DNA from: an uncultured Gammaproteobacteria bacterium
GTDB lineage: Bacteria; Patescibacteriota; Microgenomatia; PFEM01; DATLAM01
DNA: 64,000 nucleotides
Direction: 5' to 3'
Assembly: GCA_964566925.1 (NCBI GenBank)
Contig: CAZMIZ010000001.1
Span: 135,248-199,247 of the forward strand
The notes under the pieces: generated by a model
Told to the model about the DNA's origin: nothing
Databases searched by the model: none
Seen by the model: only the letters and a program-made list of their open reading frames with translations
Program-made: the position numbers and the translations under genes
Part shown: positions 2,677 to 59,561 of the stretch, piece by piece
Layout: the number at the start of each line of letters is the position of its first letter
How positions within the stretch are numbered: position 1 is the first letter of the stretch

Positions 2677-2729
2677 TATTTTAAAAACTGCCTCTTTTAA
2701 CCACGTTTGACGCGGAGGCAGTTAAGCTG

Positions 2730-3736: not shown

Positions 3737-3738
3737 TG

Positions 3739-3767: not shown

Positions 3768-3803
3768 TATCAAGCAGATTATAACACAGCCTGTTTCCGC
3801 ATG

Positions 3804-4127: not shown

Positions 4128-4156
4128 TTGACAAGCAGAAAGGTTTATGTTATTAC
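4128..4156 (+). promoter_or_regulatory. promoter-like TTGACA-N17-TATTAC upstream of the yerC-like gene
   Basis: Perfect -35 TTGACA at 4128-4133, a 17-nt spacer, then TATTAC. Confidence 0.35.
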
Positions 4157-4214
4157 TTTAATTAATCAAAGCGCTGCCCACTTTGCTGCCTAGCGAAGCG
4201 GGCTTTTTAAATTC

Positions 4215-4571: not shown

Positions 4572-4685
4572 CTTCTTCTGTTTTTACTTTCAGTTTCAGG
4601 CTAAATCGGGTATAATAAGAACCATCCGCCTTTGGCGGAGAACCTTGTTTCTCCTCGCCAGTGGGCGAGTCGAAACAACTGAAGT

Positions 4686-6122: not shown

Positions 6123-6123
6123 G

Positions 6124-7608: not shown

Positions 7609-7647
7609 GCTTGCTTAAAATAACCCCTCTTGATAAAGTAAAAATAG

Positions 7648-33547: not shown

Positions 33548-34316
33548 CCTTCTTTTCGGGGGATGGTTTCTTCGGTCTCTTTTCCTCAGGCGAGGTTTCA
33601 GCTTCTTTTTTCTCAGCTGGTTTTTCTTCTTTTTCCTCTGGTTTTGTCTCTTCGGCAGCCTCTTCTGGAGGAGCCTCTTCTGAGGGGGCTACTTCTTCCT
33701 CTTCGGCCGGAGGTTCAACTTTAACTAAAATCTGTTTGGCAGCGGTTAAGATCTCCACTCCCTCTGGAACTTTAAGATCACCGACAGTAACGGCATCATC
33801 AATTTCCTTCAGTCCGGTAACGTTAACCTCAAATTTATCAGGGAGCTCGGTTGGCAGGGCTTCTACTTCAACCTCAACTAAAGGTTGAATCAAGATTCCG
33901 CCTTTTTCTTTAACCGCGGCTGATTCGCCAGTAATCTCCACTGGAACCTCAGTCGTTACTTTTTGTTTAAGGTCAACCTGATAAAAATCAGCGTGGAGGG
34001 GTTGATCCGTCACCGGATCAAGCTGAACATTATGAATCAGAACTGGCCGAGCCTTAGTTTCACCCTTAAGATCTAAATTGACAATCCCTGTCTCCCCTGC
34101 CTCTTGATAAACCGGCAAAAAAGTTTTTAGATCAAGCTGAACCGCACAGGATTTTACCTTCTTACCATAAATATTGGCTGGCAAAATCTCTTTTCGGCGG
34201 AGCTGATTCACCTTTCGGCCGGCCACCTTCCGTTTTTCTGCTTTTAGCTTGGGTGTTTCTTTTTTTACTTTAGCCACAATGTTTCGTATCTTATCAGCTT
34301 CACTTAGCAAAATCAA
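33522..34316 (-). CDS. rplY: ribosomal protein L25 / general stress protein Ctc with Lys/Glu-rich C-terminal tail
   Basis: RKVNQLRRKEILPANIYGKK ... HADFYQVD is L25/Ctc. The start may be the GTG at 34277. The C-terminal KPEEKEEK tail is low complexity. Confidence 0.75.
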   Translation of the reverse strand: MILLSEADKIRNIVAKVKKETPKLKAEKRKVAGRKVNQLRRKEILPANIYGKKVKSCAVQLDLKTFLPVYQEAGETGIVNLDLKGETKARPVLIHNVQLDPVTDQPLHADFYQVDLKQKVTTEVPVEITGESAAVKEKGGILIQPLVEVEVEALPTELPDKFEVNVTGLKEIDDAVTVGDLKVPEGVEILTAAKQILVKVEPPAEEEEVAPSEEAPPEEAAEETKPEEKEEKPAEKKEAETSPEEKRPKKPSPEKKVAKAGKEK

Positions 34317-45440: not shown

Positions 45441-46517
45441 TTATTCAATCTTAAATTTAGAAGCGGGTGTAGGGCTGATTTGAATAAGCCATTCAGAGGA
45501 GATCGCTGGTAAGTAAAGCGAAACCTCTAAAAGAGTGTCATCTTCAAGGGTGGCTGTTCCTGAGAAAAGATAGAGGGGTTGGAAGTAGGCCTGTTTTTCA
45601 ACACTTTCATAGTAAACGAGTTTGACTGAGGTTAAATTAACCGTTTTTATAGGGTTATTCGGGGCGACGTTTGTTTCCACGCCATCTTGAGTTTTGGCAT
45701 TTAAAATCTGACCTTGGCCATTTTGGACCTCACCCAAGACCACATTCGCCGTCTTTACCGGATAGGTACCTATCTTTTCTTGGTCAAGCTGGCGGAGGAA
45801 ATAATTCAGTTTTATTAACTGACCTTCTTTAGTTACCCAAACCAAGACAACATCTTGAGCCGGGCCAAAACCAATCAAAGGGTAGCCGTCAATCGCTAAA
45901 GAAAAAACAAATTCATAGAGGGTAGCCAAATTGGGGTTGGTTACTGGTTCAAGTTCCATTCCAGTCATGGCGAAATAATTAATTGAGGTAGTAACATCTT
46001 TCTGAGTCAATTCCCAGCTGGCGAGTTTTTCCTTAATTAAACTTTCTGCCTCCTGAGGAGTGATTTCACCAAGAGCCAAAGGGAAGCTACCTTTGAGAAT
46101 AAACTGGCCTGTTTGGGAATCGACCTTAAGGTAATTATCTCCCTCTTGCCAAATGTAATAAGTAAAATCGCCGCTGGCCTGGATCGTGGGTTCGCTAGAA
46201 AAGCCGATTTCGGTGGCGAGCTTAGCAAAGCGATTAACGATCTCTTGGTCTGAGAGCACCTTTACTTGATAAACGCTTAACTGTTGAGGAAATTCATTAA
46301 AAGCCCCCTGAGGAAGAGAAAATTGAAAACTGATTTCCTCTTTGGTTTTAAGCTTATATTCGGTTTCCGGAGCAGGCAAAGGGCCAAAAACCGGGTTGGT
46401 GGGCGGCTCTTTGGTGGTCTGCCGCCAGATTAAAAGAAAGCCCAGGATGGGAATTAAAGCCGCTAAGAGGATAAAGATTTTATATTGACTGATGATCGTT
46501 TTCAACTTTTTTATCAT
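45441..46517 (-). CDS. single-pass membrane protein with extracytoplasmic domain (hypothetical, last gene of the T4SS-like operon)
   Basis: 358-aa ORF with an N-terminal TM helix. Confidence 0.45.
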   Translation of the reverse strand: MIKKLKTIISQYKIFILLAALIPILGFLLIWRQTTKEPPTNPVFGPLPAPETEYKLKTKEEISFQFSLPQGAFNEFPQQLSVYQVKVLSDQEIVNRFAKLATEIGFSSEPTIQASGDFTYYIWQEGDNYLKVDSQTGQFILKGSFPLALGEITPQEAESLIKEKLASWELTQKDVTTSINYFAMTGMELEPVTNPNLATLYEFVFSLAIDGYPLIGFGPAQDVVLVWVTKEGQLIKLNYFLRQLDQEKIGTYPVKTANVVLGEVQNGQGQILNAKTQDGVETNVAPNNPIKTVNLTSVKLVYYESVEKQAYFQPLYLFSGTATLEDDTLLEVSLYLPAISSEWLIQISPTPASKFKIE

Positions 46518-46532: not shown

Positions 46533-49500
46533 TTAAAGGATTGGTGAGCCACTACAATCGCCATACGATTTAAAGAGACATTTTTGAGGGCAACCAGGTA
46601 AATAATTACAAGGATCCTCGGGACTGCCAAGAAAACAAGAAATCGTCCCGCAACTACTGACGCCAAAATGGAGATGGGTACCAGTTGAACGGCCTGAATC
46701 ATCCATGATCCCAATTATATCACTCGAAGAAACCTCGTCACCCTCGTTTTTAGGGAAATTGCAGCGGAACTCGTCTTCTAGATGGCCATAAAGGGTATAA
46801 AGATTCTCACGATGCTGGATAATCACGTAACAGCCATAGCCAGAATGGTACCCTTGTTGGGCAATGACCCCTCGAGTAGCCGGGTGGATATCCGTGCAAC
46901 CATCTGGGGGGATGTCAATTCCTTCATGAAATTCACATTCGTGGGGCGGGAGAGGATCAGCCCGCCAGCCGTAATTACTGGAACAATCATGATAACAAGT
47001 GGGCCAGCCAAAGATCCAGGTTTCGCCAGCGGCATTAATACAAACTGGAGGAGAGGAGGAAGAAAGGTTTTTCCCTGATTGGGTTGTACCCATAACAGTT
47101 AAATTATCACAAAGCATCTCTTCCCCTTGGAGATAGTTACTTAGAGGCGGATCTCTGAGGGCCAAATGGATGGTAATGGTTTGACTGCCACCCGGGCTTA
47201 AGGGGCCAAGTTGAGAACACTCTTCTTGGGTCCAGGCGAAGGTATTGGAAACATGAGTACTAGATGGTTGTTGGGTAGGGTCACACGGAGAAAAAGTTGA
47301 GGTGTCTGGGTCGTAGAGCATGATGAGGGAAACGAACCCGGGTTCTTCAAAACGATCAAAGACCTGGATGTTCCCCAGTAAACCGGCTGCTTCATCCTCA
47401 GGATTATAAGAGTAGGTTAAAGTGTAATCAAGGGCGATGATTTCTCCGTTCTGATCAAAGACAGGCGTGACTGTTTTTTCGATCGGTAATTCCGGCGAAA
47501 TAACATGAGATCTAATTGCCTGCTCTACAAAAAAGGCGCTGGTTATGACATAAAGAGTGAATACGGAAAGGAGAGCTAAAAGCCCAATGCCTGCTAGAGT
47601 GAGAATTGAGGCAGAGGTAATTGTCGCGACAATCATAGGAATAGTTTCGTAGAGCCAGTAAGCGACTGCGTCGGGAATAATAAAATTAATGGCGCTAATT
47701 AAACCAGCTTTTAGGGTGGGCCACCACAGAGGTCTGGTGAGGAAGGCGACGTCAATTAAAGTAAATTGGCCTAAATAAAGCGGCCCGGAAAACCAATTCT
47801 GAAGGGCGATTAGGGGTGGCGTGCCAGAGAGAAGATCCATAATTAAAGGGCTGGTTGTGACTATAGGGAAAAGCCAGGGAATAAATCTGCCTAAAAGGGC
47901 AGGGATCCGTCCTAGTTTAGCCAGAAGATTAAGAAATCTAAGAAAGCCTGGGATTTTGCTTAAACCAGTCCTGGCAAAAGGCCACCACCATTCTCGAGTA
48001 GCCCAAGCCCATTGGGCTAGGGCCGGGATGGGAATAGCCCAAAGAGGAATTAAGCCAGCCGTATAGAGAACATAGCCAAGAGCAAGGCCTTTGATGGGGA
48101 AGCGCGCATAAGGATGCTCAGTTAACCAAATAGCTGGTTTACCCACGATGCGCCGAATCCATTTACTGGTAAAATGAGTTGAAGGTTCTCGGAGCCAGGC
48201 AAGCCATCGATCATTTTTGCCAATATCCAGCCAAAATTGATAGAAGTGGCCACTTCCCCCACCAAGAATGATTCCTAGCTGGGGAAACCCAATCATTTCG
48301 CCAACAGCATAACCCAAGACTGTACCAGAAAGAGTATTGAAACTGAAAAAACTCCGAGCGAATTGACCACTAAAGCTAACGGTCATCCGCAGGCCCCTAA
48401 TGGCTGGTGCACCCAAAAATCTTTTTCCAAAAGAGGTTTCGGTTAAGCTTGTCCAAACTTTAGCAAGTTGGCCAAAAGCAAGCCTTTGGGTTAACCGGGC
48501 CACCGTACCCACAGTTAAATCAAGGCCGAGTTTAAGAAGAAGGACTAGGGGACTCCGATCCCAATCTTGTTCCCGCCGCCGGAAAGCCCGACTTAAGCCA
48601 AACCAGAATCTTTTCATAAAAAGACTTTTTGATTTTTGGCTACGGCCGAAGAAATAGTTAGCCCCTCGGCGGAAGGGGGCGGAGCTCGATTGTCCCAACC
48701 AAGCTAAAGGGCTGAAAACTGGTTTCGATTTTCCTGGAGCGTAGAACGCCTCTTTATAGAGGCCCAAACGACCACCAAGACGTCTTTTAACGGCTGTCCA
48801 AAACCGATAGTTAAGTTCAGGAGTGATGTAAATTTTACGAAGAAGCTCACCTTTTTTGAAAGTGTAATCAATGTATTTCAGATGAGCCCATTTTGCTCCT
48901 GGGACTAAAGCTTCCAGTGCTCCTCTAATTGGGTCGATGACGGTCAGGGAGATGGTCCCTCCAATAGGGTTGGTGGCGAAGTATTCGATTTGATTCTTTA
49001 AATAGATTGCTTCTGCGCCAAAGGGGCCCTTTAACGCCTGAATCGTTTGATTAATTGCCCCTTCTTCAGTAGGAATAGCCCAATAAGTAGTTTCCCTTTC
49101 CGGGTGGCCTAAGGGACGGACCTGTATTCGGGGGAGATTATTTTCGTCGACATCAAGAAAAACCTCTTTTGGCAAATTGGGAACCAAAGATTGAAGAAGA
49201 CGACGGTTGATCGGAATGACGGGATTAAGGTAGCGCGAGCCATGACTGAGAAGACTTTTCTTGATCTGGCCGATAAGCTTTGCTCTCTCGTTAGGAGTAA
49301 GGTTAAGAGGTTTAAAAATTTTTTTAACCGCATCTTCAACTCCACTTGCTTCCTCAAAAAGACGAATGGTTAAATCTTCGGCTGTTTTTTGAGCTTCAGT
49401 CTGGGCGGCAGCCATGCTACCTGTTTTTCCTAAAGTTTCGGTGTGCGTTTTATAGAACTGATCATTAACTCTTTGAGCATAATTTCTCCCTAATTTGATG

Positions 49501-50216
49501 GCCAGACGGCGGTGTCTTTCTGGGTAAAAAAGAAGGTCGGGAGTTGCCTCAAGCGCCCAATAAGCCTGGGTTGAATATTTTGTGGCCAGCTCATTAAAAT
49601 GAAGCAAGGGTCCAAGTTCCTCTTGGAGGGCAATTTTTTTAGCTTGTGATAATCCCTTCCAGGCTGATAGCCGGGGCTGGCCAGCCTCATCTAGAAGGTT
49701 TTCTTTTCTAAGGAGATGATAGACACGTTCTTGAATAAGTTCATTTTCTGGGATTTCTGGCTCAACCGGATCAGTAAAATCGGACAGGGCGGCTGATCTA
49801 GTTTTTTCTCTTTGGAAAAAATCTGTTTCGCCAGTTTTTTCCACCCCTTCCCAGCGGTGTTGGTGAGCTTTCTCAACCTGCTCCTCAACGGTCGATTCGC
49901 CAGCCTTTTTTAATTCCCCCTCAATTTTTTTAGCTAGGTGTTTCTGGTGGGCTTCAATCAGATTGCTCAGCTCAGGAGGAAGAGGGGGAAGACTGGGCAA
50001 GAACCCCTTTTTAAAAGAGGCGTCAAGGGCTTTTTCTAATTCTGGAAGAAACTCTGGTTTAATGACCGTAATCGGAGCTTTAATCCCCAATTCACGGGCC
50101 CAGAGGGCGAGATTGGCTTTTGCCTTATTTTCAATTTCTTTAGGAACATCTTTTAGCTGAAGACCTCTGATTAATCGCCAAAGGCGATAGTATTTTCCTA
50201 AGATTGCTTCATCCAT
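46533..50216 (-). CDS. giant polytopic membrane protein with C-terminal Cys-rich region and M23 peptidase domain
   Basis: 1227 aa. A soluble N-terminal region of about 600 aa, about 10 TM helices, then HEGIDIP ... HSGYGCYVIIQH ... GRSTGTHLHFG, which are M23 HxxxD/HxH motifs. Confidence 0.7.
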   Translation of the reverse strand: MDEAILGKYYRLWRLIRGLQLKDVPKEIENKAKANLALWARELGIKAPITVIKPEFLPELEKALDASFKKGFLPSLPPLPPELSNLIEAHQKHLAKKIEGELKKAGESTVEEQVEKAHQHRWEGVEKTGETDFFQREKTRSAALSDFTDPVEPEIPENELIQERVYHLLRKENLLDEAGQPRLSAWKGLSQAKKIALQEELGPLLHFNELATKYSTQAYWALEATPDLLFYPERHRRLAIKLGRNYAQRVNDQFYKTHTETLGKTGSMAAAQTEAQKTAEDLTIRLFEEASGVEDAVKKIFKPLNLTPNERAKLIGQIKKSLLSHGSRYLNPVIPINRRLLQSLVPNLPKEVFLDVDENNLPRIQVRPLGHPERETTYWAIPTEEGAINQTIQALKGPFGAEAIYLKNQIEYFATNPIGGTISLTVIDPIRGALEALVPGAKWAHLKYIDYTFKKGELLRKIYITPELNYRFWTAVKRRLGGRLGLYKEAFYAPGKSKPVFSPLAWLGQSSSAPFRRGANYFFGRSQKSKSLFMKRFWFGLSRAFRRREQDWDRSPLVLLLKLGLDLTVGTVARLTQRLAFGQLAKVWTSLTETSFGKRFLGAPAIRGLRMTVSFSGQFARSFFSFNTLSGTVLGYAVGEMIGFPQLGIILGGGSGHFYQFWLDIGKNDRWLAWLREPSTHFTSKWIRRIVGKPAIWLTEHPYARFPIKGLALGYVLYTAGLIPLWAIPIPALAQWAWATREWWWPFARTGLSKIPGFLRFLNLLAKLGRIPALLGRFIPWLFPIVTTSPLIMDLLSGTPPLIALQNWFSGPLYLGQFTLIDVAFLTRPLWWPTLKAGLISAINFIIPDAVAYWLYETIPMIVATITSASILTLAGIGLLALLSVFTLYVITSAFFVEQAIRSHVISPELPIEKTVTPVFDQNGEIIALDYTLTYSYNPEDEAAGLLGNIQVFDRFEEPGFVSLIMLYDPDTSTFSPCDPTQQPSSTHVSNTFAWTQEECSQLGPLSPGGSQTITIHLALRDPPLSNYLQGEEMLCDNLTVMGTTQSGKNLSSSSPPVCINAAGETWIFGWPTCYHDCSSNYGWRADPLPPHECEFHEGIDIPPDGCTDIHPATRGVIAQQGYHSGYGCYVIIQHRENLYTLYGHLEDEFRCNFPKNEGDEVSSSDIIGIMDDSGRSTGTHLHFGVSSCGTISCFLGSPEDPCNYLPGCPQKCLFKSYGDCSGSPIL

Positions 50217-50251: not shown

Positions 50252-52177
50252 TTAAACTCCCCTAGCTTCGGCTGTTTCTGGGAATTTTTCTGGCTCAGAA
50301 GGAGTTTTCGCTTCTGAAGTCTGGACTGCTCCTGGCGCTTCTTTTGCGGCCTCAATTGCTTTTCTTTTGATTTCTCTCATCGCCAACAGCTCTTCTGGCT
50401 TAGAAGTAATCAATTGGTGTTCGTTGGGGGAGGCCACGACTCGGATCGCCACGTGGTTGGGTCCAGCAAAAAAGAGACCTTCGCCGATGTCCGCTGCTAA
50501 CAGAAGGTGTTTTTCTCCTTCAGAGAGATAGAAAACCTCGGCTACTTGGTCAATGGCGGCGGCCGACATTTTCATCAAGGTTTGGATTGAGGAGTTTTGG
50601 ACAATCGCCTTGCCGTACTCAGAAGCAAGAAAATCCTCAGCGTCCTGAGTGATGGTAGTTAAACCAAGATAATATTTCCTTGCCCTTTTAGCAATTGAAT
50701 AAAGGAAGTTAGCCGAATCCGGATACTTCATTAGATACCAAGCCTCGTCAACCACCAAAATCCGTTTCTTCATTTCTTTTTTGATTTTCGTCCAGATATA
50801 GTCGAGGATAATAAACATGGCAATTGGCCGTAAAGTATCTTCCAAGTCTTTAAGAGAAAAGACAGTAAAGGGGCTTTTAATATCTAGATTGGAGTGTTGA
50901 TCAAAAATGCCGGCGAAACTGCCTTTAACGAACTTTTCAATCCGATCAGCCAGGGAGATCGCTTCTGGTTCTTCCATCCCGCGCAGAGCCTTGTAGAGAT
51001 CCTCCATTAATGGCGGCTCATTTTTCTGGGTAGCTGGGTCCGGGGTGATCCCTTTCATTTTGTAAGTTAAAACTAGAGCTCGATCTAGAGTAGCCTCTTC
51101 GCTAGGCGAAAGCTGCCCCATAATTACTTTAAAAAGTGAATGAAGAGAAAGAATTTTCAGACCGAGTTCGTTTTCGCCTTCTTCATAAACAGCGGAAAGA
51201 TCAAAAGGGTTGATTTTGGCTTGGCTGCCAAAACCAAAACTAATAAATTCCCCACCCACCGCTTCAGCTAAGGGCTGATATTCGGCTTCAGGATCAATAA
51301 TGAGAATTTCACTATCAAACATCAGGGAGCGGAGGGCTTCTAGTTTAACCAGGTAAGATTTACCGGAGCCAGATTTGCCAAAAACAACCGCGTTGGCGTT
51401 TTCCATGGTGAAGCGATCAAAGATAATCAGCGAATCATTGTGCTCGTTAATGCCGTACATGATTCCCTCATTGGCGGTAAGCTCGCTTGAGGTAAAAGGA
51501 AAAGTGGTGGCCAAAGAGGTTGTGTCCATGTTCCGGGTGATCATCAGCCGATCATAACAAGTAGGCAGGGTAGCTTTGAAGCCCTCTTCCATCTGAAGAG
51601 TGGCTTTTTTAGAAATAATTAAGAGCGAACCTAAGGTTGATTCGACTTGTTTAGAAACCTGGTCGAGTTCTTCTAAGGTTCCAGCCGGGATGGTGATGTA
51701 AAGGCCGAATTGGAAAAAACGCTCCGCCCCTTTAACTAGCTGTTCTTGCAGTTTCCGGGCGTCTTCTAGTTTTGCTTTAGTGGCAGGATCAACAATTCTT
51801 CCTCTTTGGGTATCTGATTGGATTTCGGCTTCCATTTCACCAATTTTACGCCGCAGCTCATCTAAAATTGATCTCCCTTCAACCGGATAGACATACATCG
51901 AAATATCCAATGAGTGATCAAAATTGATTAAAGGGGCGAGCCAATTGGCGGAAACAAAGCGGGGATAGCCAGCCACGAAAAGGGTCCGGAAAAAAGTATT
52001 GCCGATTTTAACGTGATTAAAGTCCACCTCTAAAGCTGGCGGAGCAATCAAGTCCTGAATTTGGACCATTCCTTTGCCCAGGCTTTCCGTGGGAGGCAGC
52101 TTTCTCTCTCCATTAGGAGGGGTTCCGGCTGACTGGCCTTTTGGAGCGGTTTTGGTTTTTAGGAAAGGTAAGCGCAT
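50252..52177 (-). CDS. VirB4/TrbE-family type IV secretion ATPase (ATPase core)
   Basis: Walker A VVFGKSGSGKSY, Walker B RILVVDEAWYL, a TTITQDAEDF motif, and the N-terminal CagE/TrbE/VirB domain start FFRTLFVAGYP. Confidence 0.8.
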   Translation of the reverse strand: MRLPFLKTKTAPKGQSAGTPPNGERKLPPTESLGKGMVQIQDLIAPPALEVDFNHVKIGNTFFRTLFVAGYPRFVSANWLAPLINFDHSLDISMYVYPVEGRSILDELRRKIGEMEAEIQSDTQRGRIVDPATKAKLEDARKLQEQLVKGAERFFQFGLYITIPAGTLEELDQVSKQVESTLGSLLIISKKATLQMEEGFKATLPTCYDRLMITRNMDTTSLATTFPFTSSELTANEGIMYGINEHNDSLIIFDRFTMENANAVVFGKSGSGKSYLVKLEALRSLMFDSEILIIDPEAEYQPLAEAVGGEFISFGFGSQAKINPFDLSAVYEEGENELGLKILSLHSLFKVIMGQLSPSEEATLDRALVLTYKMKGITPDPATQKNEPPLMEDLYKALRGMEEPEAISLADRIEKFVKGSFAGIFDQHSNLDIKSPFTVFSLKDLEDTLRPIAMFIILDYIWTKIKKEMKKRILVVDEAWYLMKYPDSANFLYSIAKRARKYYLGLTTITQDAEDFLASEYGKAIVQNSSIQTLMKMSAAAIDQVAEVFYLSEGEKHLLLAADIGEGLFFAGPNHVAIRVVASPNEHQLITSKPEELLAMREIKRKAIEAAKEAPGAVQTSEAKTPSEPEKFPETAEARGV

Positions 52178-52180
52178 TGT

Positions 52181-53062
52181 TTATCTTTTTTTAACTGTTT
52201 TAATTAAATTGTCAATCTGCCGCTGAAGGGCCTCGCCTTCCAGAGGGGGTTGACCACTGGCCGGCGGCTCCCTTTTTTCTGGTTCAGAAGAAGGGTTGGG
52301 TGAAGATGGGGTTGGTTGAGGCGAAGGAGCTGGGGGTGTTGGGCTTAATGGTTGAGGCGGAGGTGATGATTCAGGCGAGGGAGCTTCTAAAGCTGGCTCC
52401 ACTAAAGGGGTTTTGTATTCAGAGGCAGCGGTAATTTTTTGTCCTTGAGTTTCCGGGTTATAAATAGAGAAGAAGAGCTCAATTAATTCCTGGCTGCTTA
52501 GCTGATGAGTTCTTAGACCTAATCGGCTGAGGAGGCGGATCAGGTGATCTCTTTTGGGGTAAAGATTGGTTTTGGCTCGCTCAAGGATATAGTCTTTAGG
52601 AAAAGGAAGGCCCTTTTTCTTTTTAAAAATGGAAGTGGCTGCTTTAGTGGCGCCTAGCTCCAGAGCAGTCATCGGAATGACAATATAGAACTTTTTATCC
52701 AAAACTTCATTTTGCTTCACGGTTTCTGCAACGAAGGCTCGATATTTTTGGATCTGTTCAGCCAGGAGGGGTTCCTTTTTTTTCTTTTCTTGTTCCTCCA
52801 AGAGCTTCAGATAGTTGGAAATATCTTTTTTAATGGAACGAATCACAATTTGGATCGGAAAGGTAAGTGAATTAAGAAGGCCAGCGTAAGCATAGATGGT
52901 GGCGTCTTGCTCTTTTTCCGAAAGCAAACCAAAATTGATGGCAGTCGTCGCCAAGACCAGACAGACACCACCGTCTTTAAGGACCACCAGGTCATCTTGA
53001 ATATCCTCAATATCCAAATGCTCTTGACTAGTCGCTCGAATAGGAATTTTGGTAGGATCCAT
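52181..53062 (-). CDS. VirB4 N-terminal-domain-like protein with Pro-rich tail (in frame with the downstream ATPase ORF across one TAA)
   Basis: DLVVLKDGGVCLVLATTAINFGLLSEKEQDATIYAYAGLLNSL resembles the N-terminal region of Gram-positive VirB4 homologues. Its stop TAA (52181-52183) and the ATG of the next ORF (52175-52177) are separated by one codon in the same frame. Confidence 0.4.
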   Translation of the reverse strand: MDPTKIPIRATSQEHLDIEDIQDDLVVLKDGGVCLVLATTAINFGLLSEKEQDATIYAYAGLLNSLTFPIQIVIRSIKKDISNYLKLLEEQEKKKKEPLLAEQIQKYRAFVAETVKQNEVLDKKFYIVIPMTALELGATKAATSIFKKKKGLPFPKDYILERAKTNLYPKRDHLIRLLSRLGLRTHQLSSQELIELFFSIYNPETQGQKITAASEYKTPLVEPALEAPSPESSPPPQPLSPTPPAPSPQPTPSSPNPSSEPEKREPPASGQPPLEGEALQRQIDNLIKTVKKR

Positions 53063-53144: not shown

Positions 53145-53519
53145 TTACTTTTTCTTTAGTTTATTTATTATCGAATTAAAAATTAAGTTTAGCTCTTTAG
53201 CTTCTTGCCATAATGTTTTTGCCTCTTCCTTTAGTTCTGGGACAGCAATAGGAATCATTCTTAACCAATGTTTTGACTCTCTTGATTCCTTTTTACATAT
53301 ACCGATTTTATGGCCAAAGTCTCGTTTAGACTCAGCGTCGTCGGCCTCACAGTAGTTAGCTCCAACACTGGTTCCTGCTTTAACAAGTTGAGTTATTAAC
53401 GGGGTCGTTATCGGCATCTTGGGTATTCTATTGGCAAACTTAATAATATTTTCGCCAAACCTGGCGGTTCTCTCTTCTAAATCGAATTTTTTACTTTTAG
53501 TTATTTTGTTATTAGTCAT
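53145..53519 (-). CDS. four-helix-bundle protein (23S rRNA intervening-sequence protein / Avd-like family)
   Basis: ARFGENIIKF ... QLVKAGTSVGANYCEADDAESKRDFGHKIGICKKESRESKHWLRM matches the TIGR02436/PF05635 family. Confidence 0.75.
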   Translation of the reverse strand: MTNNKITKSKKFDLEERTARFGENIIKFANRIPKMPITTPLITQLVKAGTSVGANYCEADDAESKRDFGHKIGICKKESRESKHWLRMIPIAVPELKEEAKTLWQEAKELNLIFNSIINKLKKK

Positions 53520-53552: not shown

Positions 53553-54581
53553 TCAATTCTGCTTGGCTTGAATTTCTATTGGCTGAGTAATTTCCCCTTT
53601 AAGAATAATTTGGATTAGGTCAAAGTGGAGGCCTTCCTTTTCCACCTCGATTTCGTAAGTCCCGTTTTTTAAAGGACTGGCGATTCTGAATTGGCCGAGC
53701 TTGTTGGTTTTTAAGGCTCGGACAGGCGAACCTTTCTCGTCTCTGATTTCAATGATGGCATTTTCAACCAGCTTGCCCTCTTGATCAATGACCATGCCCA
53801 CTAAAATATTGGGACGGTCTGGTGGAGCGGGAATGGGGAGATCAGGGGAAAGTCTGGGTTTAACCGTAGGCGATTTTACCCGGGCTGGTTTTTTGATTGG
53901 GGCAGCTTTTTTAACTACTTTCGGCTCTGGGGCCGGTTGGGGCATGGTTTTTTCGGCTGCCTTGGTGGGCGCTTTTTGGGGTTCAGCTAAGGGAAGGTGA
54001 AGTTTCCGGATTTTAATTCCCGGTTTTACCTCTTCAGCCAGGGCTGGCTTGACATTCGGGGTTAAGGTGGATGGGAGAGAAACCAGCTGGAAGAGATTGC
54101 CGATTTGGTTAAGGGCGCCCTCTTCCTGTTGATCTAGCGGACTGGATGGGGTAGTGGTGGGCAGTGTTTTGAGGTATTCCTCGAGCCGGGCTTGATCAAC
54201 CGGTGTGGCGGGGGCTTGTTTCTTTACTTTCGGCCGAGGGACAACCTTAAAGAATTCCGGCTTGACCGGTGTTTTCTTCCAAATAAACTGGGTGGGTGAA
54301 TAGATGGCTTTTGAAAAGGCGATAAACCAGCGGTCAAGTGGCCGTTCCTCAATCGGCATAAAAGCAAAAGCAACTCCGCTGAGACCAGAAAAGATGACTA
54401 GCGGCCATTTAAAATAAGAAGCCAAGGGGGCAGCGTAAAAAAGAAGAGCGACGAGACAGCCACCTGCCAGAAACCCAAACTGTTTAAGGGTCATGTCGCC
54501 GACCAGCCGAAACTGGTAGGCGGTGATATGTTGCGGGACAGGATGTTGTTCCATAAGCGCTTCGCGCAGGACAGAGCGCAC
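53553..54581 (-). CDS. PrgI/VirB3-like membrane protein with Pro/Lys-rich linker and C-terminal CarbopepD_reg-like beta domain
   Basis: N-terminal ITAYQFRLVGDMTLKQFGFLAGG plus two TM helices resembles the PrgI family. The C-terminal ILVGMVIDQEGKLVENAIIEIRDEKGSPV ... NGTYEIEVEKEG is transthyretin/CarbopepD_reg-like. GTG start. Confidence 0.4.
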   Translation of the reverse strand: MRSVLREALMEQHPVPQHITAYQFRLVGDMTLKQFGFLAGGCLVALLFYAAPLASYFKWPLVIFSGLSGVAFAFMPIEERPLDRWFIAFSKAIYSPTQFIWKKTPVKPEFFKVVPRPKVKKQAPATPVDQARLEEYLKTLPTTTPSSPLDQQEEGALNQIGNLFQLVSLPSTLTPNVKPALAEEVKPGIKIRKLHLPLAEPQKAPTKAAEKTMPQPAPEPKVVKKAAPIKKPARVKSPTVKPRLSPDLPIPAPPDRPNILVGMVIDQEGKLVENAIIEIRDEKGSPVRALKTNKLGQFRIASPLKNGTYEIEVEKEGLHFDLIQIILKGEITQPIEIQAKQN

Positions 54582-54626: not shown

Positions 54627-54998
54627 CTAAGATTTTTCTAAGTTCTTCATTAATGTTGTTAAAATTTTCATTAATTCGGTATTCCTGGTAAGAAAACCCT
54701 TAATCATTTGATTATCAAACTTTTTCGTTTCAAACATAACATCCAGCCAATAATCTGCCTCAAAGCTGGATCCTCGGGAAATTCCAAGAAACTGACGATA
54801 GCTTTTAGAATAGTAGCGACCATAACCTTCGGCAATATTCGCACCAATAGAAGACAGCGCCCTTATGAGTTGACCAGTAAGAATTTCAGCAACTCTATCT
54901 TTTCGTTGGATAGAGAAATATTTAATGGCATCAACTGTTAACAGTTTTGCCTTTTGGTAAGCAATTAAGTTTTTATAGGAAGCGGGCAGTTTTCGCAT
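54627..54998 (-). CDS. four-helix-bundle protein (23S rRNA intervening-sequence protein / Avd-like family), second copy
   Basis: YQKAKLLTVDAIKYF ... GQLIRALSSIGANIAEGYGRYYSKSYRQFLGISRGSSFEADYWL matches the canonical family signature. Confidence 0.75.
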   Translation of the reverse strand: MRKLPASYKNLIAYQKAKLLTVDAIKYFSIQRKDRVAEILTGQLIRALSSIGANIAEGYGRYYSKSYRQFLGISRGSSFEADYWLDVMFETKKFDNQMIKGFLTRNTELMKILTTLMKNLEKS

Positions 54999-55146: not shown

Positions 55147-58100
55147 TTGTTAGGAGAAGAAATGCCTGAGGAAAGTCAAGAAAAAGGAATGATGCCAGGA
55201 GAAAAAAGTTTTGGCCGTCCTCATCACCCAGAGGCGAAGCCCACCATGGGTCTCCCAGGCCAGCCTGAAAAAGGGGAAAGATACTTTGCTACCTTGAACG
55301 AATTTAGAGAGGCTCTTGAAGGAATTCCCGATGGGTTTAAAAAGAAAGCGAATCGTTTAAGAAGGAATCTTCGCTCAGCCATAAAAAAGAGTGAAGAAGA
55401 AAAGGTCGGGGATATTTTAAAAGAAGTAGACGGATTAGTAGAGAAAGAGCCAAAGCTGGTCCAGTGGTCAGAATTGATGGAACAAGAGGCCACCGGGGAA
55501 GTCCAACCAGGGGAATCAAGCGAAAAGTCGGTCGGAGAGATAGTCGAAGAGCCGCCCCAAAAAGCGAAACCAGAAGACATTCGGATGGTTCCGGACGCAA
55601 TCTCTGACGAAAGAATGGAAGACGATGAAGAGGTCCTAGTTGATCCGCGAACAGAAAAAATGAAGTTCGTTGAGAGATATCCTCTGTGGGTGGAAGAAAC
55701 AACCAGAAGCGTTGCCGAAATTCGGGGTCAATATTTCAGATTTTTAGCCGGCATTGGTGCCCGCCAGCCAGTTCCAGGTCAAGGAATTAATGATTCTGAA
55801 TGGGAAGAGATTGCCAGATATACTGCTGAAATAGATTCAATTATTCGGAAAATTGGGAGAAAGGAGAGAGGAGAAAGAACGGCTGAAGAAAAAGGAGAGC
55901 TTAAGAGGGCACAAAAGCTTAAACGGATGGCTGGCGCTTATTACCATGAGCTTGAGTTTTATCACCGATTTTGGTACGGAGAGGAATCAGGAATCGGTAA
56001 GGAAGTGAAAAGATCTAAAGAGGGATCAAGACTTCTTTTGATTGACCAAATGGCGGTTCTTTTTACTATTCCTGAAGTGGCGAAAGCCTTTAAAGAAGAA
56101 AAGGGCTATAAAAGTGATGCTGAGTTAGTTGATGAGGTTAATGATCCCTATGGCTGGCGAAGACTGGGACATCACCTTCGCCGTTATTCGTGCACCCCGA
56201 TGTATCGGGACGCTTATGAGGCGGGGGCGAAGACAGCTAAACCTGGTGAACCGATTAAACCGGGGTTTGGTCTTAGCTACGAGTATAGTCTTTTTGGCAT
56301 TTACTTTACTGGGAGATGGGCGGAAAAAAACAATGCCAAATACGCCAAAGTTCTTCGAGTAGAAGATGCTGATGGCAATCTGATTATTGATCTGGGGAAA
56401 TTAGGAGCCACCTATGATATGTGGACTACCCCTGCCAGACTAGAGTTGTATGTTCTTTTTTGGGAGCATTTAGGAAAAAGAAACCAAATTAGACTCTCTG
56501 CTGGGAGGGGAAGAGAATGGCTAAACAAGCACGAGGAGCAGCTTTATTCCAAAAAAGCAAGCGAAGGGCTGCGAGATCTTCTTTGGAATTATCGAGATAA
56601 AGAAAAAGTCCTTAGAGACCGGATTGGCGAAATTGATAAGAAAAAGGAATCAGAGGGGTTATCCGCTGAAGACGAAGAAGAGCTTCAACAGCTCCAATCT
56701 AGCCTTCAAGACCTTCTAGCGGAGCAGGAAAGGCTAGTTGGATTCTCAAATGAGGAGATTAAAGAGTTTCGGGAATTACTAATGAAAAAAGCAATTAATA
56801 GAGAACAACTAAGAGAAGATGAAGAGGAGAGCCTGGCAGAGCTTAAAAAGACAATCGGAAACGTGATGCTTAGAAATATGATTAATCGAGACTTAGGTTT
56901 TGACCCCTCTGAAAGAGACTTTAATCTGATTGCTATTTTTAGCGATCCCTTGAGTCGGCACGAAGAACTTACGCCCAATGATATTTTAACCAACCTCTTA
57001 GTGGATGTCCGGAGGATGGAACAAACCCAGGACGCTTTAACAGCCGGAAAAGAATGCTTTATCGCTAAACCTTCATTTGAAATGATTCTTGACATGGAGT
57101 CGGAGGTATATGCTCATCTTGGTTATTTTCCTTGGTTAAGGGAGAGACAGATATTTGCCCTGAGAGAGCTTGTTTCTAGATTATATTTAGCCGGGGTTAT
57201 TAACACGATCAGGTTAAGCGGTACTCACCTTTTTGAAGAAGAGAGTAAAAAAATTTATGATAGTTTGAAGGCAAAGGCTAATGTAGGTCTTCACGCCGAA
57301 GGTTTGAAAGCCACTTATGGAATAGATTTTACTGATCCCGACCTCAAAGACGGCGCATCGCTTGCTGAAGTAATCAGATGTCTTAAGCTAGTTCATAGAG
57401 GGAGGTTAAATGCAATTTATGAACAAAGAAGAGAGCAATGGGTGATCAATGTTTTAGAGAAAGGGGTGGCAGCAGAAGCCCACGAGAAGGTGCGATTTCT
57501 TAGCCGATTCAGATTTTCTGATTATGTCTCTTTTGAAGCGCGGATTATTGAAGAACCAGTGCTTAACGCTATGGGGTGGACCAGGGAAGAAAGTCTAGAG
57601 AAAGAAAAAGAACGGTTTCGAACTCGCGACCTTTGGTTAGCCAAAAAAGGCCAACTTCCTGGCGATGACGGCGTCTTTATATTTAGCCGTAATCAGGCGT
57701 TAAAACCGGGTTGGGAGAGGTTCGCGAGAGAGAAAGGGGAAAGTGATCGAAGGAAAGAAGACGGCAGGTGGATTTATGGTTATCGCTACGAAACCGATAA
57801 ATTTGAAAAGGTAGGCTATGTAACCGACGAAAACCACGTTTATCGAACTATCGCCTGGGAGGATCCAATCCAGAAAAGCTTATTTGAAGTGGAACAGCTG
57901 ATTTATTCCAAAAATTACGAGATTTTGAGTAAATATATTGATGAACACTCCCCGGAGATAATTGATGATCCCAACGAATGGTTAACCCCTCCTCAAAGGC
58001 AGAATCTGATTAAAGATCACCTCCGCCGGATCAGTATTGATCCTGACCGAGCCGAAGTTTTAATGAAGAAATATTCTTGCACCAATGCCGATTGCTGGAT

Positions 58101-58455
58101 TTGGACGGCCAAAAGGTTGACCTTTGGACGTCTGGCCCCCGAACTTATAGCTAAAATCCCGATTGTTGGTCCTCTTGCCAGAAATGTTAATATTGCCGGC
58201 ATTGGACTTTCTGGCTGGATTGGTGCGGTAGCCCAATTTGGCCTTCCCAGGGTCGCCACCTATTTGACCGGTAATCCTATCGCGATCGGCACCGGGGTTT
58301 ATTTTCTCCAGTTAGGGCTTATCTCTTTTGTTACTAGTCCTCTGGTGCGAAGAATGGCGTGGCTTAGCACCATTCCAGGGACAAATTTTAGGTTAAAAGG
58401 CCTCCTCCCAATTTATTGGGAGCCTAAAGGAAAGGTAAAAGAATATGAGGGTTAA
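55147..58455 (+). CDS. large hypothetical protein with C-terminal TM hairpin (divergent from the T4SS-like genes)
   Basis: 1102 aa, Glu/Lys-rich, with no recognisable catalytic motifs. Two C-terminal hydrophobic helices. Confidence 0.5.
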   Translation: MLGEEMPEESQEKGMMPGEKSFGRPHHPEAKPTMGLPGQPEKGERYFATLNEFREALEGIPDGFKKKANRLRRNLRSAIKKSEEEKVGDILKEVDGLVEKEPKLVQWSELMEQEATGEVQPGESSEKSVGEIVEEPPQKAKPEDIRMVPDAISDERMEDDEEVLVDPRTEKMKFVERYPLWVEETTRSVAEIRGQYFRFLAGIGARQPVPGQGINDSEWEEIARYTAEIDSIIRKIGRKERGERTAEEKGELKRAQKLKRMAGAYYHELEFYHRFWYGEESGIGKEVKRSKEGSRLLLIDQMAVLFTIPEVAKAFKEEKGYKSDAELVDEVNDPYGWRRLGHHLRRYSCTPMYRDAYEAGAKTAKPGEPIKPGFGLSYEYSLFGIYFTGRWAEKNNAKYAKVLRVEDADGNLIIDLGKLGATYDMWTTPARLELYVLFWEHLGKRNQIRLSAGRGREWLNKHEEQLYSKKASEGLRDLLWNYRDKEKVLRDRIGEIDKKKESEGLSAEDEEELQQLQSSLQDLLAEQERLVGFSNEEIKEFRELLMKKAINREQLREDEEESLAELKKTIGNVMLRNMINRDLGFDPSERDFNLIAIFSDPLSRHEELTPNDILTNLLVDVRRMEQTQDALTAGKECFIAKPSFEMILDMESEVYAHLGYFPWLRERQIFALRELVSRLYLAGVINTIRLSGTHLFEEESKKIYDSLKAKANVGLHAEGLKATYGIDFTDPDLKDGASLAEVIRCLKLVHRGRLNAIYEQRREQWVINVLEKGVAAEAHEKVRFLSRFRFSDYVSFEARIIEEPVLNAMGWTREESLEKEKERFRTRDLWLAKKGQLPGDDGVFIFSRNQALKPGWERFAREKGESDRRKEDGRWIYGYRYETDKFEKVGYVTDENHVYRTIAWEDPIQKSLFEVEQLIYSKNYEILSKYIDEHSPEIIDDPNEWLTPPQRQNLIKDHLRRISIDPDRAEVLMKKYSCTNADCWIWTAKRLTFGRLAPELIAKIPIVGPLARNVNIAGIGLSGWIGAVAQFGLPRVATYLTGNPIAIGTGVYFLQLGLISFVTSPLVRRMAWLSTIPGTNFRLKGLLPIYWEPKGKVKEYEG

Positions 58456-58475: not shown

Positions 58476-59561
58476 ATGGCTGAAGCAATTACCGAAACAA
58501 TGGGGCCAGGTCTGGCTTTTAGAAGAGAGACTCCGGAGAGTCAGGCCCTTAAAGGTTTAGAAGCGAAGATTGGGAGAATAAAAGAAAGAGTTTCTTTTTC
58601 AGACCTGCAACAAAGACTAAAAAGTTTTATTAAAAAAGATATCAGCAATGATCCGGAGATAGAAGGCATAAGTCAACAATTATGGGAAGTAGTTGATGCC
58701 AGGCTTAGGAAAGAGGAAGATCATTTAAAGACAAATGATCTTCCCAGGGTGTTTCGAGAAATGGTAGGAAGTCTTTTGCCCGGAGCCTCTCTCGAAGGTA
58801 AAGAGCAACTCCAAGAATTATTGGTTAAACTTTCTGAGTTTGAAGCAAGGGGAGTTATGGGAGAATTAAGCCCCGATCCTCAAAAAGCTTTTGAACAACT
58901 TTCAGGTTTAATTTTAGGAAAAGAAGATGGAGAGCAATTCGTTAACACCATGACAGAGGTGGCCGCTGCAACAGAAAAGCCCTATCCAAAACCGAAACCA
59001 CCCAGTCTTCCTACCGGAGAAAAAGGTTTTTTTGGGAAAGGTAAGGGCCCGGGTCTTAGATATTATAGATTGATGGTTATAGGGATTGCTCTGATGACCT
59101 GTTGCGCCGCTCAAGGAGCTTGTCCTGGTCTAAAGATGTATCTTGATGTTCGAGGAAGAACGGAGGCAGATTCGGGTACCGAGGCCCAAGAACAAGCCGG
59201 GATTAACCAGGCGGCCCTAGATGTAGTTGATGGAAGATATCCTTATGAATGGCTAGAAAGAAGTGAAACCTTAAGGGGAGAAGAAGGAGAAGAGTTTGCG
59301 AGAAGTGTTCTCGAAAGAACTCGAGACTTGGTCATGGCGGACCCAAATCGGTTAGACCAAATGGATGCCGCCTGGATTGGCCGCCTCATCCATGAGTACG
59401 GGGAAGAGGAAGGCTATAATCTAATTTTTAATCTTGATCAGGTTGATGATTTAGAAAAACGGGATCAAGTAAGCCAATATTTATCTAGTGGGCGGTACGA
59501 AAGTTCTTCTCCTCCAGGCGGTAGCAGAGAAGCAAGCCAGGGAAGCAATGGCAGCGGTTGA
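58476..59561 (+). CDS. hypothetical protein with central TM helix
   Basis: 361-aa ORF, 20 nt downstream of the previous gene. Contains CCAAQGAC next to its TM helix. Confidence 0.45.
   Translation: MAEAITETMGPGLAFRRETPESQALKGLEAKIGRIKERVSFSDLQQRLKSFIKKDISNDPEIEGISQQLWEVVDARLRKEEDHLKTNDLPRVFREMVGSLLPGASLEGKEQLQELLVKLSEFEARGVMGELSPDPQKAFEQLSGLILGKEDGEQFVNTMTEVAAATEKPYPKPKPPSLPTGEKGFFGKGKGPGLRYYRLMVIGIALMTCCAAQGACPGLKMYLDVRGRTEADSGTEAQEQAGINQAALDVVDGRYPYEWLERSETLRGEEGEEFARSVLERTRDLVMADPNRLDQMDAAWIGRLIHEYGEEEGYNLIFNLDQVDDLEKRDQVSQYLSSGRYESSSPPGGSREASQGSNGSG

Follow-up and report, generated by a model that had tools for sequence, protein, structure and literature searches.

The 1227-aa protein described here is a membrane protein predicted to display an intact wall-cutting enzyme on the cell exterior. 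We regard it as an unusual, enlarged form of a component already known to assist Gram-positive T4SSs, and it does not represent a new kind of system. We consider it likely that it is the dedicated wall hydrolase subunit of a chromosomal, oriC-proximal, Gram-positive-type (MPF_FATA-like) T4SS in an ultrasmall Patescibacterial, probably Microgenomates, organism. Its gene, its domains and the neighbouring T4SS genes in the window (the whole stretch of 64,000 nucleotides that was analysed) are listed in Table 1. The ORF of 1227 aa reported in the first-pass annotation is borne out as a complete ATG-to-stop reading frame, and its minus-strand orientation, not stated at that time, can be added. Full-length homologues with 49-54% identity at 100% coverage are present in independent assemblies, which shows that the gene is genuine and did not arise by fusion during assembly.

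Table 1. Positions in the window of the 1227-aa protein, its regions and the T4SS-related neighbours.
Feature	Position	Strand	Basis or remark
PrgI (VirB3-like) with C-terminal CarboxypepD_reg domain	53553..54581	minus	PF12666, 31.5 bits (cutoff 27); PF13620
TrsD/TraC-like protein	52181..53062	minus	NF045975 profile positions 129-292, E 2.5e-9; NF041427 TrsD
VirB4-like ATPase (CD1110 / MPF_FATA type), directly upstream	50252..52177	minus	NF045971, PF19044, PF12846
Whole ORF, ATG to stop, 1227 aa plus stop codon	46533..50216	minus	full-length homologues P0002, P0003
aa 1-554, Cys-free, mostly alpha-helical, inferred cytoplasmic, without known family or fold	48555..50216	minus
aa 1-130, N-terminal module kept across the wider family	49827..50216	minus	profile search matches and consensus
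aa 555-902, membrane module, weakly hydrophobic, glycine-zipper-rich	47511..48554	minus
aa 622-667, glycine-zipper hairpin, best-conserved family block	48216..48353	minus	invariant columns in alignments A3 and A6
aa 873-897, sole strongly hydrophobic TM helix, directly before the predicted extracellular part	47526..47600	minus	insertion energy
aa ~905-1070, Ig-like beta-sandwich spacer with conserved C978, C1000, C1036, C1059	47007..47504	minus
aa 1078-1190, M23 (LytM-type) zinc endopeptidase, complete active site	46647..46985	minus
aa 1189-1227, Cys-rich C-terminal tail (C1189, C1194, C1203, C1209, C1213, C1221)	46536..46652	minus
358-aa bitopic protein, one N-terminal TM helix, 15 nt downstream	45441..46517	minus	PrgL/VirB8 slot by position only
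463-aa ORF, classical VirB6 topology	59643-61034	minus	N-terminal TM helix, ~120-aa loop, several strong TM helices

The genes for PrgI, the TrsD/TraC-like protein and the CD1110-type VirB4 are located upstream on the same strand, with gaps of 3-35 nt. As had been noted before, the target gene immediately follows VirB4 (NF045971 conju_CD1110, 400.9 bits against a cutoff of 325), from which it is separated by 35 nt. The TrsD/TraC-like protein matches the N-terminal part of the mycoplasma-type VirB4 profile, and its homologues carry PF26593 (TraC-like). The 358-aa bitopic ORF, which by sequence could be connected neither with PrgL nor with any PDB entry, is kept as the downstream partner in loci L001, L003, L004 and L006.

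In order to follow the gene across genomes, a profile of aa 1-905, without the M23 domain, was used, and the family proved to be tiny (21 representatives among 1.84 billion). Thirteen of these carry a C-terminal Peptidase_M23 domain above the Pfam cutoff and one (P0013) a CHAP domain above the cutoff; CHAP matches in P0019 and P0025 are sub-threshold. The rest of the family architecture stays the same whether M23 or CHAP serves as the hydrolase. The co-occurrence with VirB4, proposed earlier as a check, was found directly upstream in five of the six loci having upstream sequence. The order PrgI - TrsD/TraC-like - VirB4 - family member - small bitopic ORF - dnaN - dnaA can be observed in five of six informative loci (L001, L004, L005 and L007/L008 among them), with relatives down to ~20% identity. 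The exception is P0017 (L006), which has no VirB4 immediately upstream, an observation that speaks against a wall hydrolase of the T4SS.

The C-terminal Peptidase_M23 match (PF01551, aa 1096-1187) scores 68.2 bits, well above the 28.7-bit gathering cutoff, and strong M23 matches were obtained for both sequence and fold, the best being general DD-endopeptidases (ShyA/ShyC, MepM, Csd3/Pgp3 and NMB0315). The motifs first read as HEGIDIP and HLHF are confirmed as HEGID (H1097/D1101) and HLH (H1181/H1183), and the catalytic H1145 is also present. All of these residues are invariant in alignment A1, and the catalytic H/D/H/H/H set, whose lack of conservation had been named as one of two refuting conditions, is kept in 14 of the 15 M23-bearing family members; from these residues, the domain is predicted to be catalytically complete. 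M23 was the only domain found in the 1227-aa protein with Pfam, NCBIfam and PHROGs, with no glycosidase (SLT, muramidase, lysozyme). The module is indeed Cys-rich, as first described: all 16 cysteines are located within aa 978-1221 and none in the first 902 aa, and cysteine makes up 4.9% of the last 325 aa, compared with 0.6% for the remaining ORFs of the window (P about 2e-10). A D-P-C-x-Y-L-P-G-C-P motif in the C-terminal tail is kept in close relatives.

The distribution of charges and cysteines, together with the fold matches, favours an N-in/C-out topology. The C-terminal part is read as external because all 16 cysteines follow the last TM helix (family members are alike in this), because the C-terminal region carries a net negative charge, with the K/R-rich blocks (aa 540-555, 577-625, 668-707 and 740-769) all lying before aa 770, and because the beta-sandwich resembles domains of Gram-positive surface proteins. 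The K/R-rich blocks themselves are read as cytoplasmic. This indirect evidence would place the M23 domain outside the cell rather than in the cytoplasm, in agreement with the extracytoplasmic module of the first-pass annotation.

The roughly 10-helix membrane domain proposed in the same annotation was not recovered. In a hand-made hydropathy scan with a Hessa-type insertion scale, aa 879-897 is the only clearly membrane-inserting segment of the target (summed insertion energy -1.6; family average -0.6). In P0002, P0003, P0007, P0011 and P0014, no segment apart from the equivalent helix has an insertion energy close to zero or lower; more than one membrane-inserting segment was found in each of P0012, P0013 and P0024. 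The family-averaged profile shows six hydrophobic peaks, five of them marginal, and the AF2 model of the membrane module consists of ~17 mostly short helices, at moderate confidence in this region (mean pLDDT 67.6, pTM 0.41). Residues 555-902 are best read as a pair of helical hairpins (aa ~622-667 and ~708-739) followed by three spans (~771-789, ~838-856 and ~873-897). In the first hairpin, where AF2 pLDDT is 80-89, the residues S625, N627, G631, G635, G652, G656 and Y659 are conserved, and TM segments of the Gly/Ala-rich zipper type occur in distant relatives too. Within the family, conservation is highest in the membrane module, which is also far more elaborate than an anchor would need to be; this suggests an additional function and counts against the wall hydrolase reading.

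The soluble N-terminal domain described in the first pass is present, although it extends over ~550 aa rather than ~600 aa. The statement that the N-terminal two thirds belong to no recognisable family holds, as no match was found in Pfam, NCBIfam, PHROGs, PDB sequences or PDB folds. The fold comparison suggested for residues 1-600 showed no similarity to VirB8 / TcpC (NTF2-like) or VirB10, and these candidates were rejected. The first ~130 residues, with the consensus MD..Y..L..LV.ALQ..WP.E.E...FA..LGI.L...DP.FL...P.IPPNL.ELV, were matched by the profile search in P0016, P0018-P0020 and P0022-P0025.

The protein can be compared to PrgK of Enterococcus faecalis pCF10, which, like TraG of pIP501, is a DELTA-class VirB1-like hydrolase of Gram-positive T4SSs. 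The pCF10 gene order is prgI - prgJ(VirB4) - prgK - prgL, and the target likewise comes directly after a CD1110-type VirB4, with a small bitopic protein encoded next. In PrgK, a cytoplasmic N-terminus and a TM helix (254-274) precede the LytM, muramidase and CHAP domains, and PrgL, encoded by the following gene, is its binding partner (PMC11323569; PMC12857230). Both proteins have an N-terminal domain of no assigned function, poorly predicted or unassigned, followed by a membrane anchor and a hydrolase part whose first domain is of the LytM/M23 type (PMC11323569); for the target, a cytoplasmic N-terminal domain and an extracellular hydrolase, as in PrgK, are predicted. The target is nevertheless longer (1227 aa versus 871 aa), with a pre-anchor region of ~870 aa versus ~250 aa that includes the conserved multi-helix glycine-zipper module, and its predicted extracellular part is Cys-rich (16 Cys, versus one in all of PrgK). 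Its M23 domain keeps all catalytic residues, whereas the LytM domain of PrgK is degenerate and metal-free; on the other hand, it has M23 only, without muramidase/SLT or CHAP. Among the hallmarks of VirB1-like hydrolases of the PrgK/TraG/CwlT/Orf14 type, the target shares the position by virB4 in a T4SS cluster, but neither homology to PrgK nor the glycosidase domain responsible for activity in PrgK, TraG and CwlT. Two of these differences count against the wall hydrolase reading: a glycosidase is absent from the target, while PrgK acts through its muramidase, and the only alignment to PrgK, in the M23 motif region, is not significant (hhalign probability 1.5%).

A second occupant of the same slot is SEML1_0007 of Southlakia epibionticum ML1 (Saccharimonadia), a gene of the essential T4SS cluster SEML1_0006-0019 (PMC10633639). 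It follows VirB4, has 3342 bp (1113 aa) and is essential by Tn-seq (PMC10633639; see also PMC12102498); only a C-terminal metallopeptidase (aa 951-1105) was recognised in it, and an "M23 domain-containing protein" is among its closest structural matches (PMC10633639). The gene order PrgI (0010) - 293-aa protein (0009) - VirB4 (0008) - 0007 beside dnaN and dnaA corresponds to that of the target, and both proteins exceed 1100 aa (1113 versus 1227 aa) with only a C-terminal metallopeptidase recognisable, a comparison made by description and slot. They differ in that the catalytic domain of SEML1_0007 was assigned to the Hedgehog/DD-peptidase (M15-like) fold and that of the target is M23, and in that a separate lysozyme+CHAP protein (0006), absent here, follows SEML1_0007. 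The family profile search did not recover SEML1_0007 at E<=1e-3.

The earlier suggestion that such a fusion could couple wall cleavage to the secretion apparatus is therefore supported by the synteny, by an architecture kept despite the hydrolase swap, and by the two same-slot precedents, PrgK and SEML1_0007. The principle is not new, as membrane-anchored VirB1-type hydrolases are standard in Gram-positive T4SSs. In the mechanism that we propose, the first ~550 residues would stay in the cytoplasm and probably dock onto the base of VirB4, TrsD-like and PrgI-like proteins. Judging from charge and cysteine distribution, the glycine-zipper module and the one strong TM helix would embed the protein beside the channel, with the Ig-like beta-sandwich as a putative spacer. 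The disulfide-rich M23 endopeptidase, outside the membrane, would cut peptidoglycan peptide cross-links locally and, to judge from its family and the PrgK-type precedents, may open the wall where the T4SS or pilus must pass, which is the VirB1 role. Of this scheme, the domain content, the intact active site, the shared architecture and the synteny are observed; the topology, the substrate and the contact with the T4SS are inferred.

It is also conceivable, though unlikely, that the protein is a VirB6-VirB1 fusion, in which the glycine-zipper module (aa 555-902) oligomerises and forms or lines the inner-membrane translocon. The VirB6 "missing" from Microgenomatia would then be present here in extremely diverged form, its C-terminus joined to a wall hydrolase. 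In Tn916/ICEBs1-type systems a VirB6-like gene lies between virB4 and the hydrolase gene, which makes a fusion of these neighbours plausible; like the target, VirB6/TrbL/PrgH subunits are membrane proteins encoded beside VirB4 and VirB3-like genes in the T4SS cluster. The conservation of the module, with invariant Gly/Ser/Asn zipper positions, and the zipper-type segments of distant relatives fit this idea, as does the reported scarcity of VirB6 homologues in Microgenomatia, read there as extreme divergence (PMC12102498). However, aa 540-905 gave no TrbL/VirB6 (PF04610) Pfam signal even at E=10, the hhalign probability against PrgH was 0.2%, and no fold match was found. The target, whose soluble parts on either side of the membrane are long, has one clear TM helix and five marginal segments instead of the at least five clearly hydrophobic helices expected of such subunits, and PrgH shows four hydrophobic segments on the same scan. 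Moreover, the window contains the separate 463-aa ORF with VirB6 topology (best Pfam match TrbL, sub-threshold, E 0.16), and S. epibionticum has separate VirB6-like proteins besides SEML1_0007. We are similarly doubtful of a broader version, in which this family and SEML1_0007-type proteins would be a Patescibacteria-specific core T4SS subunit merging three jobs: a cytoplasmic VirB4 platform, a glycine-zipper channel or collar replacing the "missing" VirB6 (perhaps VirB8) in Microgenomatia, and an exchangeable wall-cutting head (M23, CHAP or M15). If true, this would make the family the central scaffold of a secretion machine on which the epibiotic lifestyle depends.

Rather improbable is a host-directed enzyme, shown at the epibiont-host contact site and cutting host peptidoglycan for T4SS/pilus penetration or nutrient release. 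Cultivated Patescibacteria are obligate epibionts whose T4SS is essential for epibiotic growth (PMC10633639; PMC12857230), the M23 site is intact, in contrast to the degenerate, regulatory LytM of PrgK (PMC11323569), and the adhesin/pilin-type beta-sandwich could push the enzyme outward. Against this, the TM helix tethers the protein to the producer's membrane, the ~330 residues outside are short for crossing its own wall and envelope, and no release or cleavage site was identified. Such a role is compatible with, and does not exclude, that of a T4SS wall hydrolase. Finally, a housekeeping wall-remodelling or division protein (MepM/ShyA/EnvC-like) that merely lies in the oriC-proximal block by the T4SS genes is very improbable: the best M23 matches and the P0017 locus would suit it, and the synteny could reflect origin proximity since the whole block is anchored by dnaA/dnaN, but the gene's place between VirB4 and the bitopic ORF goes beyond mere dnaN proximity, the same slot holds a hydrolase in plasmid-borne Gram-positive T4SSs without oriC context, and free-standing M23 DD-endopeptidases (NMB0315, ShyA/ShyC, MepM, Csd3, LytM, lysostaphin), which are secreted or periplasmic proteins of 130-450 aa with LysM, coiled-coil or SH3b accessory domains, have neither a T4SS context nor a counterpart of the conserved ~900-aa cytoplasmic and membrane region.

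The reading as a T4SS-dedicated wall hydrolase leaves the general picture unchanged, as Gram-positive-type T4SSs with a membrane-anchored hydrolase beside VirB4 were already known. It was in Patescibacteria that survival of the bearer was first shown to depend on a T4SS (PMC10633639; PMC12857230). In Microgenomatia, VirB6 and VirB8 mostly escape detection, and no protein has been assigned to the VirB1 role (PMC12102498). The gene described here is a concrete, position-conserved candidate for the wall-opening function in Patescibacterial T4SSs, and it brings with it ~900 conserved residues of unassigned sequence, whose presumed contacts are the ATPase and the membrane channel.

The gene under study is a single minus-strand open reading frame that runs from ATG to stop over 1227 codons; a plus-strand gene at the same coordinates was rejected, the plus-strand translation being riddled with stop codons. 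Two full-length homologues, each from an independent metagenome assembly, can be aligned with the predicted protein at 100% coverage (54% and 49% identity), the alignment with its N-terminus (MDEAILGKYYRLWRL...) beginning at residue 1, and the start codon and the unbroken architecture are therefore regarded as genuine, and not as the result of a frameshift or an assembly fusion. As proposed in the first-pass annotation, the protein ends in a cysteine-rich M23 peptidase module. Peptidase_M23, the sole Pfam domain, was detected at aa 1096-1187 (68.2 bits, cutoff 28.7), the NCBIfam and PHROGs matches are confined to this region, and a profile search against PDB sequences returned M23 enzymes only, with NMB0315 as the top match (E 5e-19). 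All 16 cysteines are located within aa 978-1221; cysteine makes up 4.9% of the last 325 residues, compared with 0.60% of the residues encoded by the 49 remaining ORFs of the window (P about 2e-10), and is absent from the first 902 residues (P about 0.005). A Walker-A-like string at aa 490, located in a low-confidence linker and absent from the close relatives P0002 and P0003, was judged to be due to chance.

The family was collected with an exhaustive HMMER profile search using aa 1-905 of three close homologues, the M23 domain being left out on purpose; of the 1.84 billion cluster representatives searched, only 21 were retrieved at E<=1e-3. Word-indexed searches found the three close members only. 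A scan of metagenome contigs with the alignment of the conserved membrane block (A6) added only one further short contig (L010), and a scan of genome contigs with the full target alignment returned only an unrelated M23 protein from a 'Multivorans' MAG (L002). Its members are either rare or extremely divergent. The query profile contained no M23 sequence, yet a C-terminal Peptidase_M23 domain was found in 13 of the 21 representatives; P0013 carries a C-terminal CHAP domain above the Pfam cutoff, P0019 and P0025 show CHAP matches below the threshold, three representatives have no C-terminal Pfam match and two are short fragments. Because an M23-free query recovers M23 and CHAP ends, the succession of an N-terminal region of no known family, membrane module and presumably extracellular wall hydrolase is kept, and the catalytic head is exchangeable.

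The gene neighbourhood is presented in the table below, and VirB4 is indeed the adjacent upstream gene on the same strand. Beyond the 358-aa gene, dnaN and dnaA are found on the opposite strand, followed by rnpA, yidC and related genes. This gene order recurs in the loci L001, L004, L005 and L007/L008, around relatives of down to ~20% identity, including the CHAP-bearing member and a member without an assigned domain, and VirB4 is directly upstream in five of the six informative loci (L003, in which the upstream sequence is absent, was not counted as informative). In L006 (GCA_016199065.1, JACQHK010000053.1), where positions 2954-7609 encode P0017, a 1551-aa member with M23, the downstream half is kept (a 354-aa ORF, dnaN and dnaA), and a ClpB-like AAA+ gene and a 149-aa ORF replace the PrgI, TraC-like and VirB4 genes upstream; the T4SS genes may be located elsewhere or have been lost. 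A promoter scan gave promoter-like counts equal to the shuffle expectation, and a terminator scan gave only a weak hairpin at the VirB4 stop codon. A phage origin, raised by PHROG M23 matches to tape-measure and ejectosome proteins, was rejected since the chromosomal, oriC-proximal T4SS context is kept across loci. Such oriC-proximal, relaxase-less, MPF_FATA-like T4SS are known in Patescibacteria including Microgenomatia (Quinonero-Coronel et al. 2025, PMC12102498); neither the assembly accessions of the relatives nor Peptidase_M23 were found in the supplement of that study.

Features of the T4SS locus and other genes of the window
Feature	Coordinates	Strand	Remarks
964-aa ORF	34300-37194	-	N-terminal NAD-dependent epimerase/dehydratase and DUF4012; adjoins Wzy_C and polysaccharide flippase-like genes
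Bitopic protein, 358 aa	45441-46517	-	Directly after the target
Target, 1227 aa	46533-50216	-	
VirB4, 641 aa	50252-52177	-	CD1110-type (NF045971, 400.9 bits, cutoff 325); 35 nt from the target
TrsD/TraC-like protein, 293 aa	52181-53062	-	
Four-helix-bundle, Avd-like protein	53145-53519	-	'23S rRNA intervening sequence protein' (TIGR02436); between the PrgI-like and TrsD/TraC-like genes
PrgI (VirB3-like) with CarboxypepD_reg tail	53553-54581	-	342 aa; CarboxypepD_reg (Ig-like) at aa 260-318
Four-helix-bundle, Avd-like protein	54627-54998	-	'23S rRNA intervening sequence protein' (TIGR02436)
1102-aa protein	55147-58455	+	Divergent from the PrgI-like gene
361-aa protein	58476-59561	+	Divergent from the PrgI-like gene
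463-aa polytopic protein	59643-61034	-	N-terminal TM helix, ~120-aa loop, several strong TM helices
935-aa protein	61044-63851	-	N-terminal signal-like hydrophobic segment

Several further features of this locus were observed. On the mycoplasma-type VirB4 profile NF045975, positions 129-292 are matched by the TrsD/TraC-like protein and positions 294-893 by the VirB4 protein; judged from these matches, the two genes resemble a divided VirB4, with the N-terminal domain encoded by one and the ATPase by the other. The PrgI-like protein is considerably longer than PrgI of pCF10 (117 aa), and its combination with CarboxypepD_reg can also be observed in L001 and L005, and possibly in L007 (a faint match). 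The two Avd-like genes flank the PrgI-like gene on both sides, within the run of T4SS genes; L004 has a single copy (489-899) and L001 has none. A diversity-generating arrangement (DGR), suggested by these two genes, was dropped, as no direct repeats of at least 40 nt were found within 44-64 kb. No family was detected for the divergent 1102-aa and 361-aa proteins; L005 has a 1063-aa ORF (906-4097) followed by a 319-aa ORF (1-890) at the same divergent position, and the pair may belong to the conserved gene set of the T4SS locus.

The module at aa 555-902 is the most conserved part of the family. The AF2 model (14 sequences, mean pLDDT 67.6) shows ~17 mostly short helices in it, and the invariant positions (S625, N627, G631, G635, G652, G656, Y659, R705, P707, G710, G721 and W738) make up a glycine-zipper hairpin and, beyond it, the motif R-x-P-[LIF]-K-G ... 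W-x-[TA]-[RK]-x-W-W. With a Hessa-type membrane-insertion scale, aa 879-897 is the sole clearly inserting segment of the target; a single such segment was also found in the close relatives P0002, P0003, P0007, P0011 and P0014, and more than one in P0012, P0013 and P0024. The family-averaged hydrophobicity of the module has six peaks, five of them marginal. The membrane domain of about ten helices in the first-pass annotation is thus an overcount, and a polytopic protein with three to seven membrane passes is plausible.

Four lines of evidence agree on the orientation. The N-terminus of ~550 residues lacks a signal peptide, and by the known rules of Sec/YidC insertion such a region should remain cytoplasmic. 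The family-averaged K+R content is high at aa 540-555 (5.2), 577-625 (8.9), 668-707 (6.0) and 740-769 (4.7), and low at 797-827 (0.8) and 846-858 (0.3); beyond aa 903 the protein is net acidic (20 K+R versus 35 D+E). By the positive-inside rule, aa 622-667 and 708-739 would be hairpins with both ends on the cytoplasmic side, and aa ~771-789, ~838-856 and ~873-897 would be three membrane spans, an odd number of crossings that would give an N-in/C-out topology. Moreover, the cysteines of nearly all family members are located almost exclusively beyond the last hydrophobic helix, and the beta-sandwich of the target is of the surface-protein type. We infer that the target is N-in/C-out, and on the evidence at hand a cytoplasmic M23 domain is not indicated.

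Taken with the slot beside VirB4, this arrangement suggests a membrane-embedded wall hydrolase dedicated to the T4SS, a reading that we regard as probable. The glycine-zipper module might instead form the translocon, the protein being a VirB6-VirB1 fusion; this seems unlikely, and no TrbL/VirB6 signal was found in the module by Pfam, by hhalign against PrgH or by fold comparison. With its classical VirB6 topology, the 463-aa ORF may be the VirB6 that is 'missing' in Microgenomatia. Its best Pfam match is TrbL/VirB6, below threshold (E 0.16); none of its >200 homologues has a Pfam domain, and those with names belong to Shapirobacteria, Chisholmbacteria and the 'Patescibacteria group', names that correspond to the Microgenomates group. 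Together with the synteny reported in PMC12102498, these homologues indirectly assign the source of the window to Microgenomates. Its profile showed no VirB6/PrgH link against PrgH and no T4SS match among PDB sequences. The 935-aa protein directly upstream of it is the only other Cys-rich protein of the window, with 27 Cys (2.9%, the highest content besides the C-terminus of the target), and has no Pfam or PHROG family.

The dedicated-hydrolase reading was compared with two known systems. The pCF10 genes are arranged as prgH(B6) - prgI(B3) - prgJ(B4) - prgK(B1) - prgL(B8). PrgK is an essential VirB1-type hydrolase and a binding partner of PrgL, which is encoded by the following gene; PrgK consists of an intracellular N-terminal domain, a TM helix at 254-274 (255-273 in our hydrophobicity scan), and LytM, muramidase and CHAP domains (PMC11323569; PMC12857230). 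By gene order the target occupies the PrgK slot, and its predicted layout is basically that of PrgK. Its 358-aa neighbour is in the PrgL slot by position only: hhalign gave no sequence link to PrgL, and its profile had no T4SS match among PDB sequences. No sequence similarity between the target and PrgK is detectable, and hhalign of the family profiles against PrgK, PrgH and PrgL gave nothing significant. Unlike PrgK, the target has no glycosidase domain, its pre-anchor region is ~3.5 times longer and contains the conserved multi-helix membrane module, and its M23 domain is catalytically complete, whereas the LytM domain of PrgK is degenerate.

In Southlakia epibionticum ML1, dnaA, dnaN and recF are accompanied on the opposite strand by SEML1_0010, 0009, 0008, 0007 and 0006 (Wang et al. 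2023, PMC10633639), of which 0010 is PrgI, 0009 has 882 bp, 0008 is VirB4-like and 0006 comprises two lysozyme domains and CHAP. SEML1_0007 (3342 bp, annotated as hypothetical) has a Hedgehog/DD-peptidase fold at aa 951-1105 as its sole recognised domain, the structures closest to it are those of 'Peptidase M15B' and 'Peptidase M23 domain-containing' proteins, and it was scored first as growth-defective and then as essential (PMC10633639). Sharing slot and layout with SEML1_0007 as described there, the target corresponds in position and architecture to a Saccharibacterial T4SS gene found by experiment to be essential. That a large gene with a peptidase domain follows virB4 in Patescibacteria had been noted without analysis (PMC12102498; PMC10633639).

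An enzyme directed at the host wall, acting at an epibiont-host interface, is an improbable alternative, although compatible with the dedicated-hydrolase reading. A housekeeping M23 enzyme with coincidental synteny is very improbable.

As a T4SS-dedicated hydrolase, the target would be integrated into the VirB3/VirB4 base through its cytoplasmic N-terminal domain and membrane module, the beta-sandwich would serve as a spacer that places the active M23 endopeptidase in the wall, and local cleavage of peptide cross-links would allow assembly of the channel or pilus. The domains, the integrity of the active site, the conserved architecture and the synteny are direct results, and the topology, the substrate and a physical link to the T4SS are inferences from them. 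A membrane-anchored hydrolase beside VirB4 is already known as a principle. What is new is that a small family of strongly diverged proteins has been defined, which share a conserved module at the N-terminus and a glycine-zipper membrane block and have an exchangeable hydrolase head; in the target the sole hydrolase is an M23 domain that is catalytically intact and presumably rich in disulfides.
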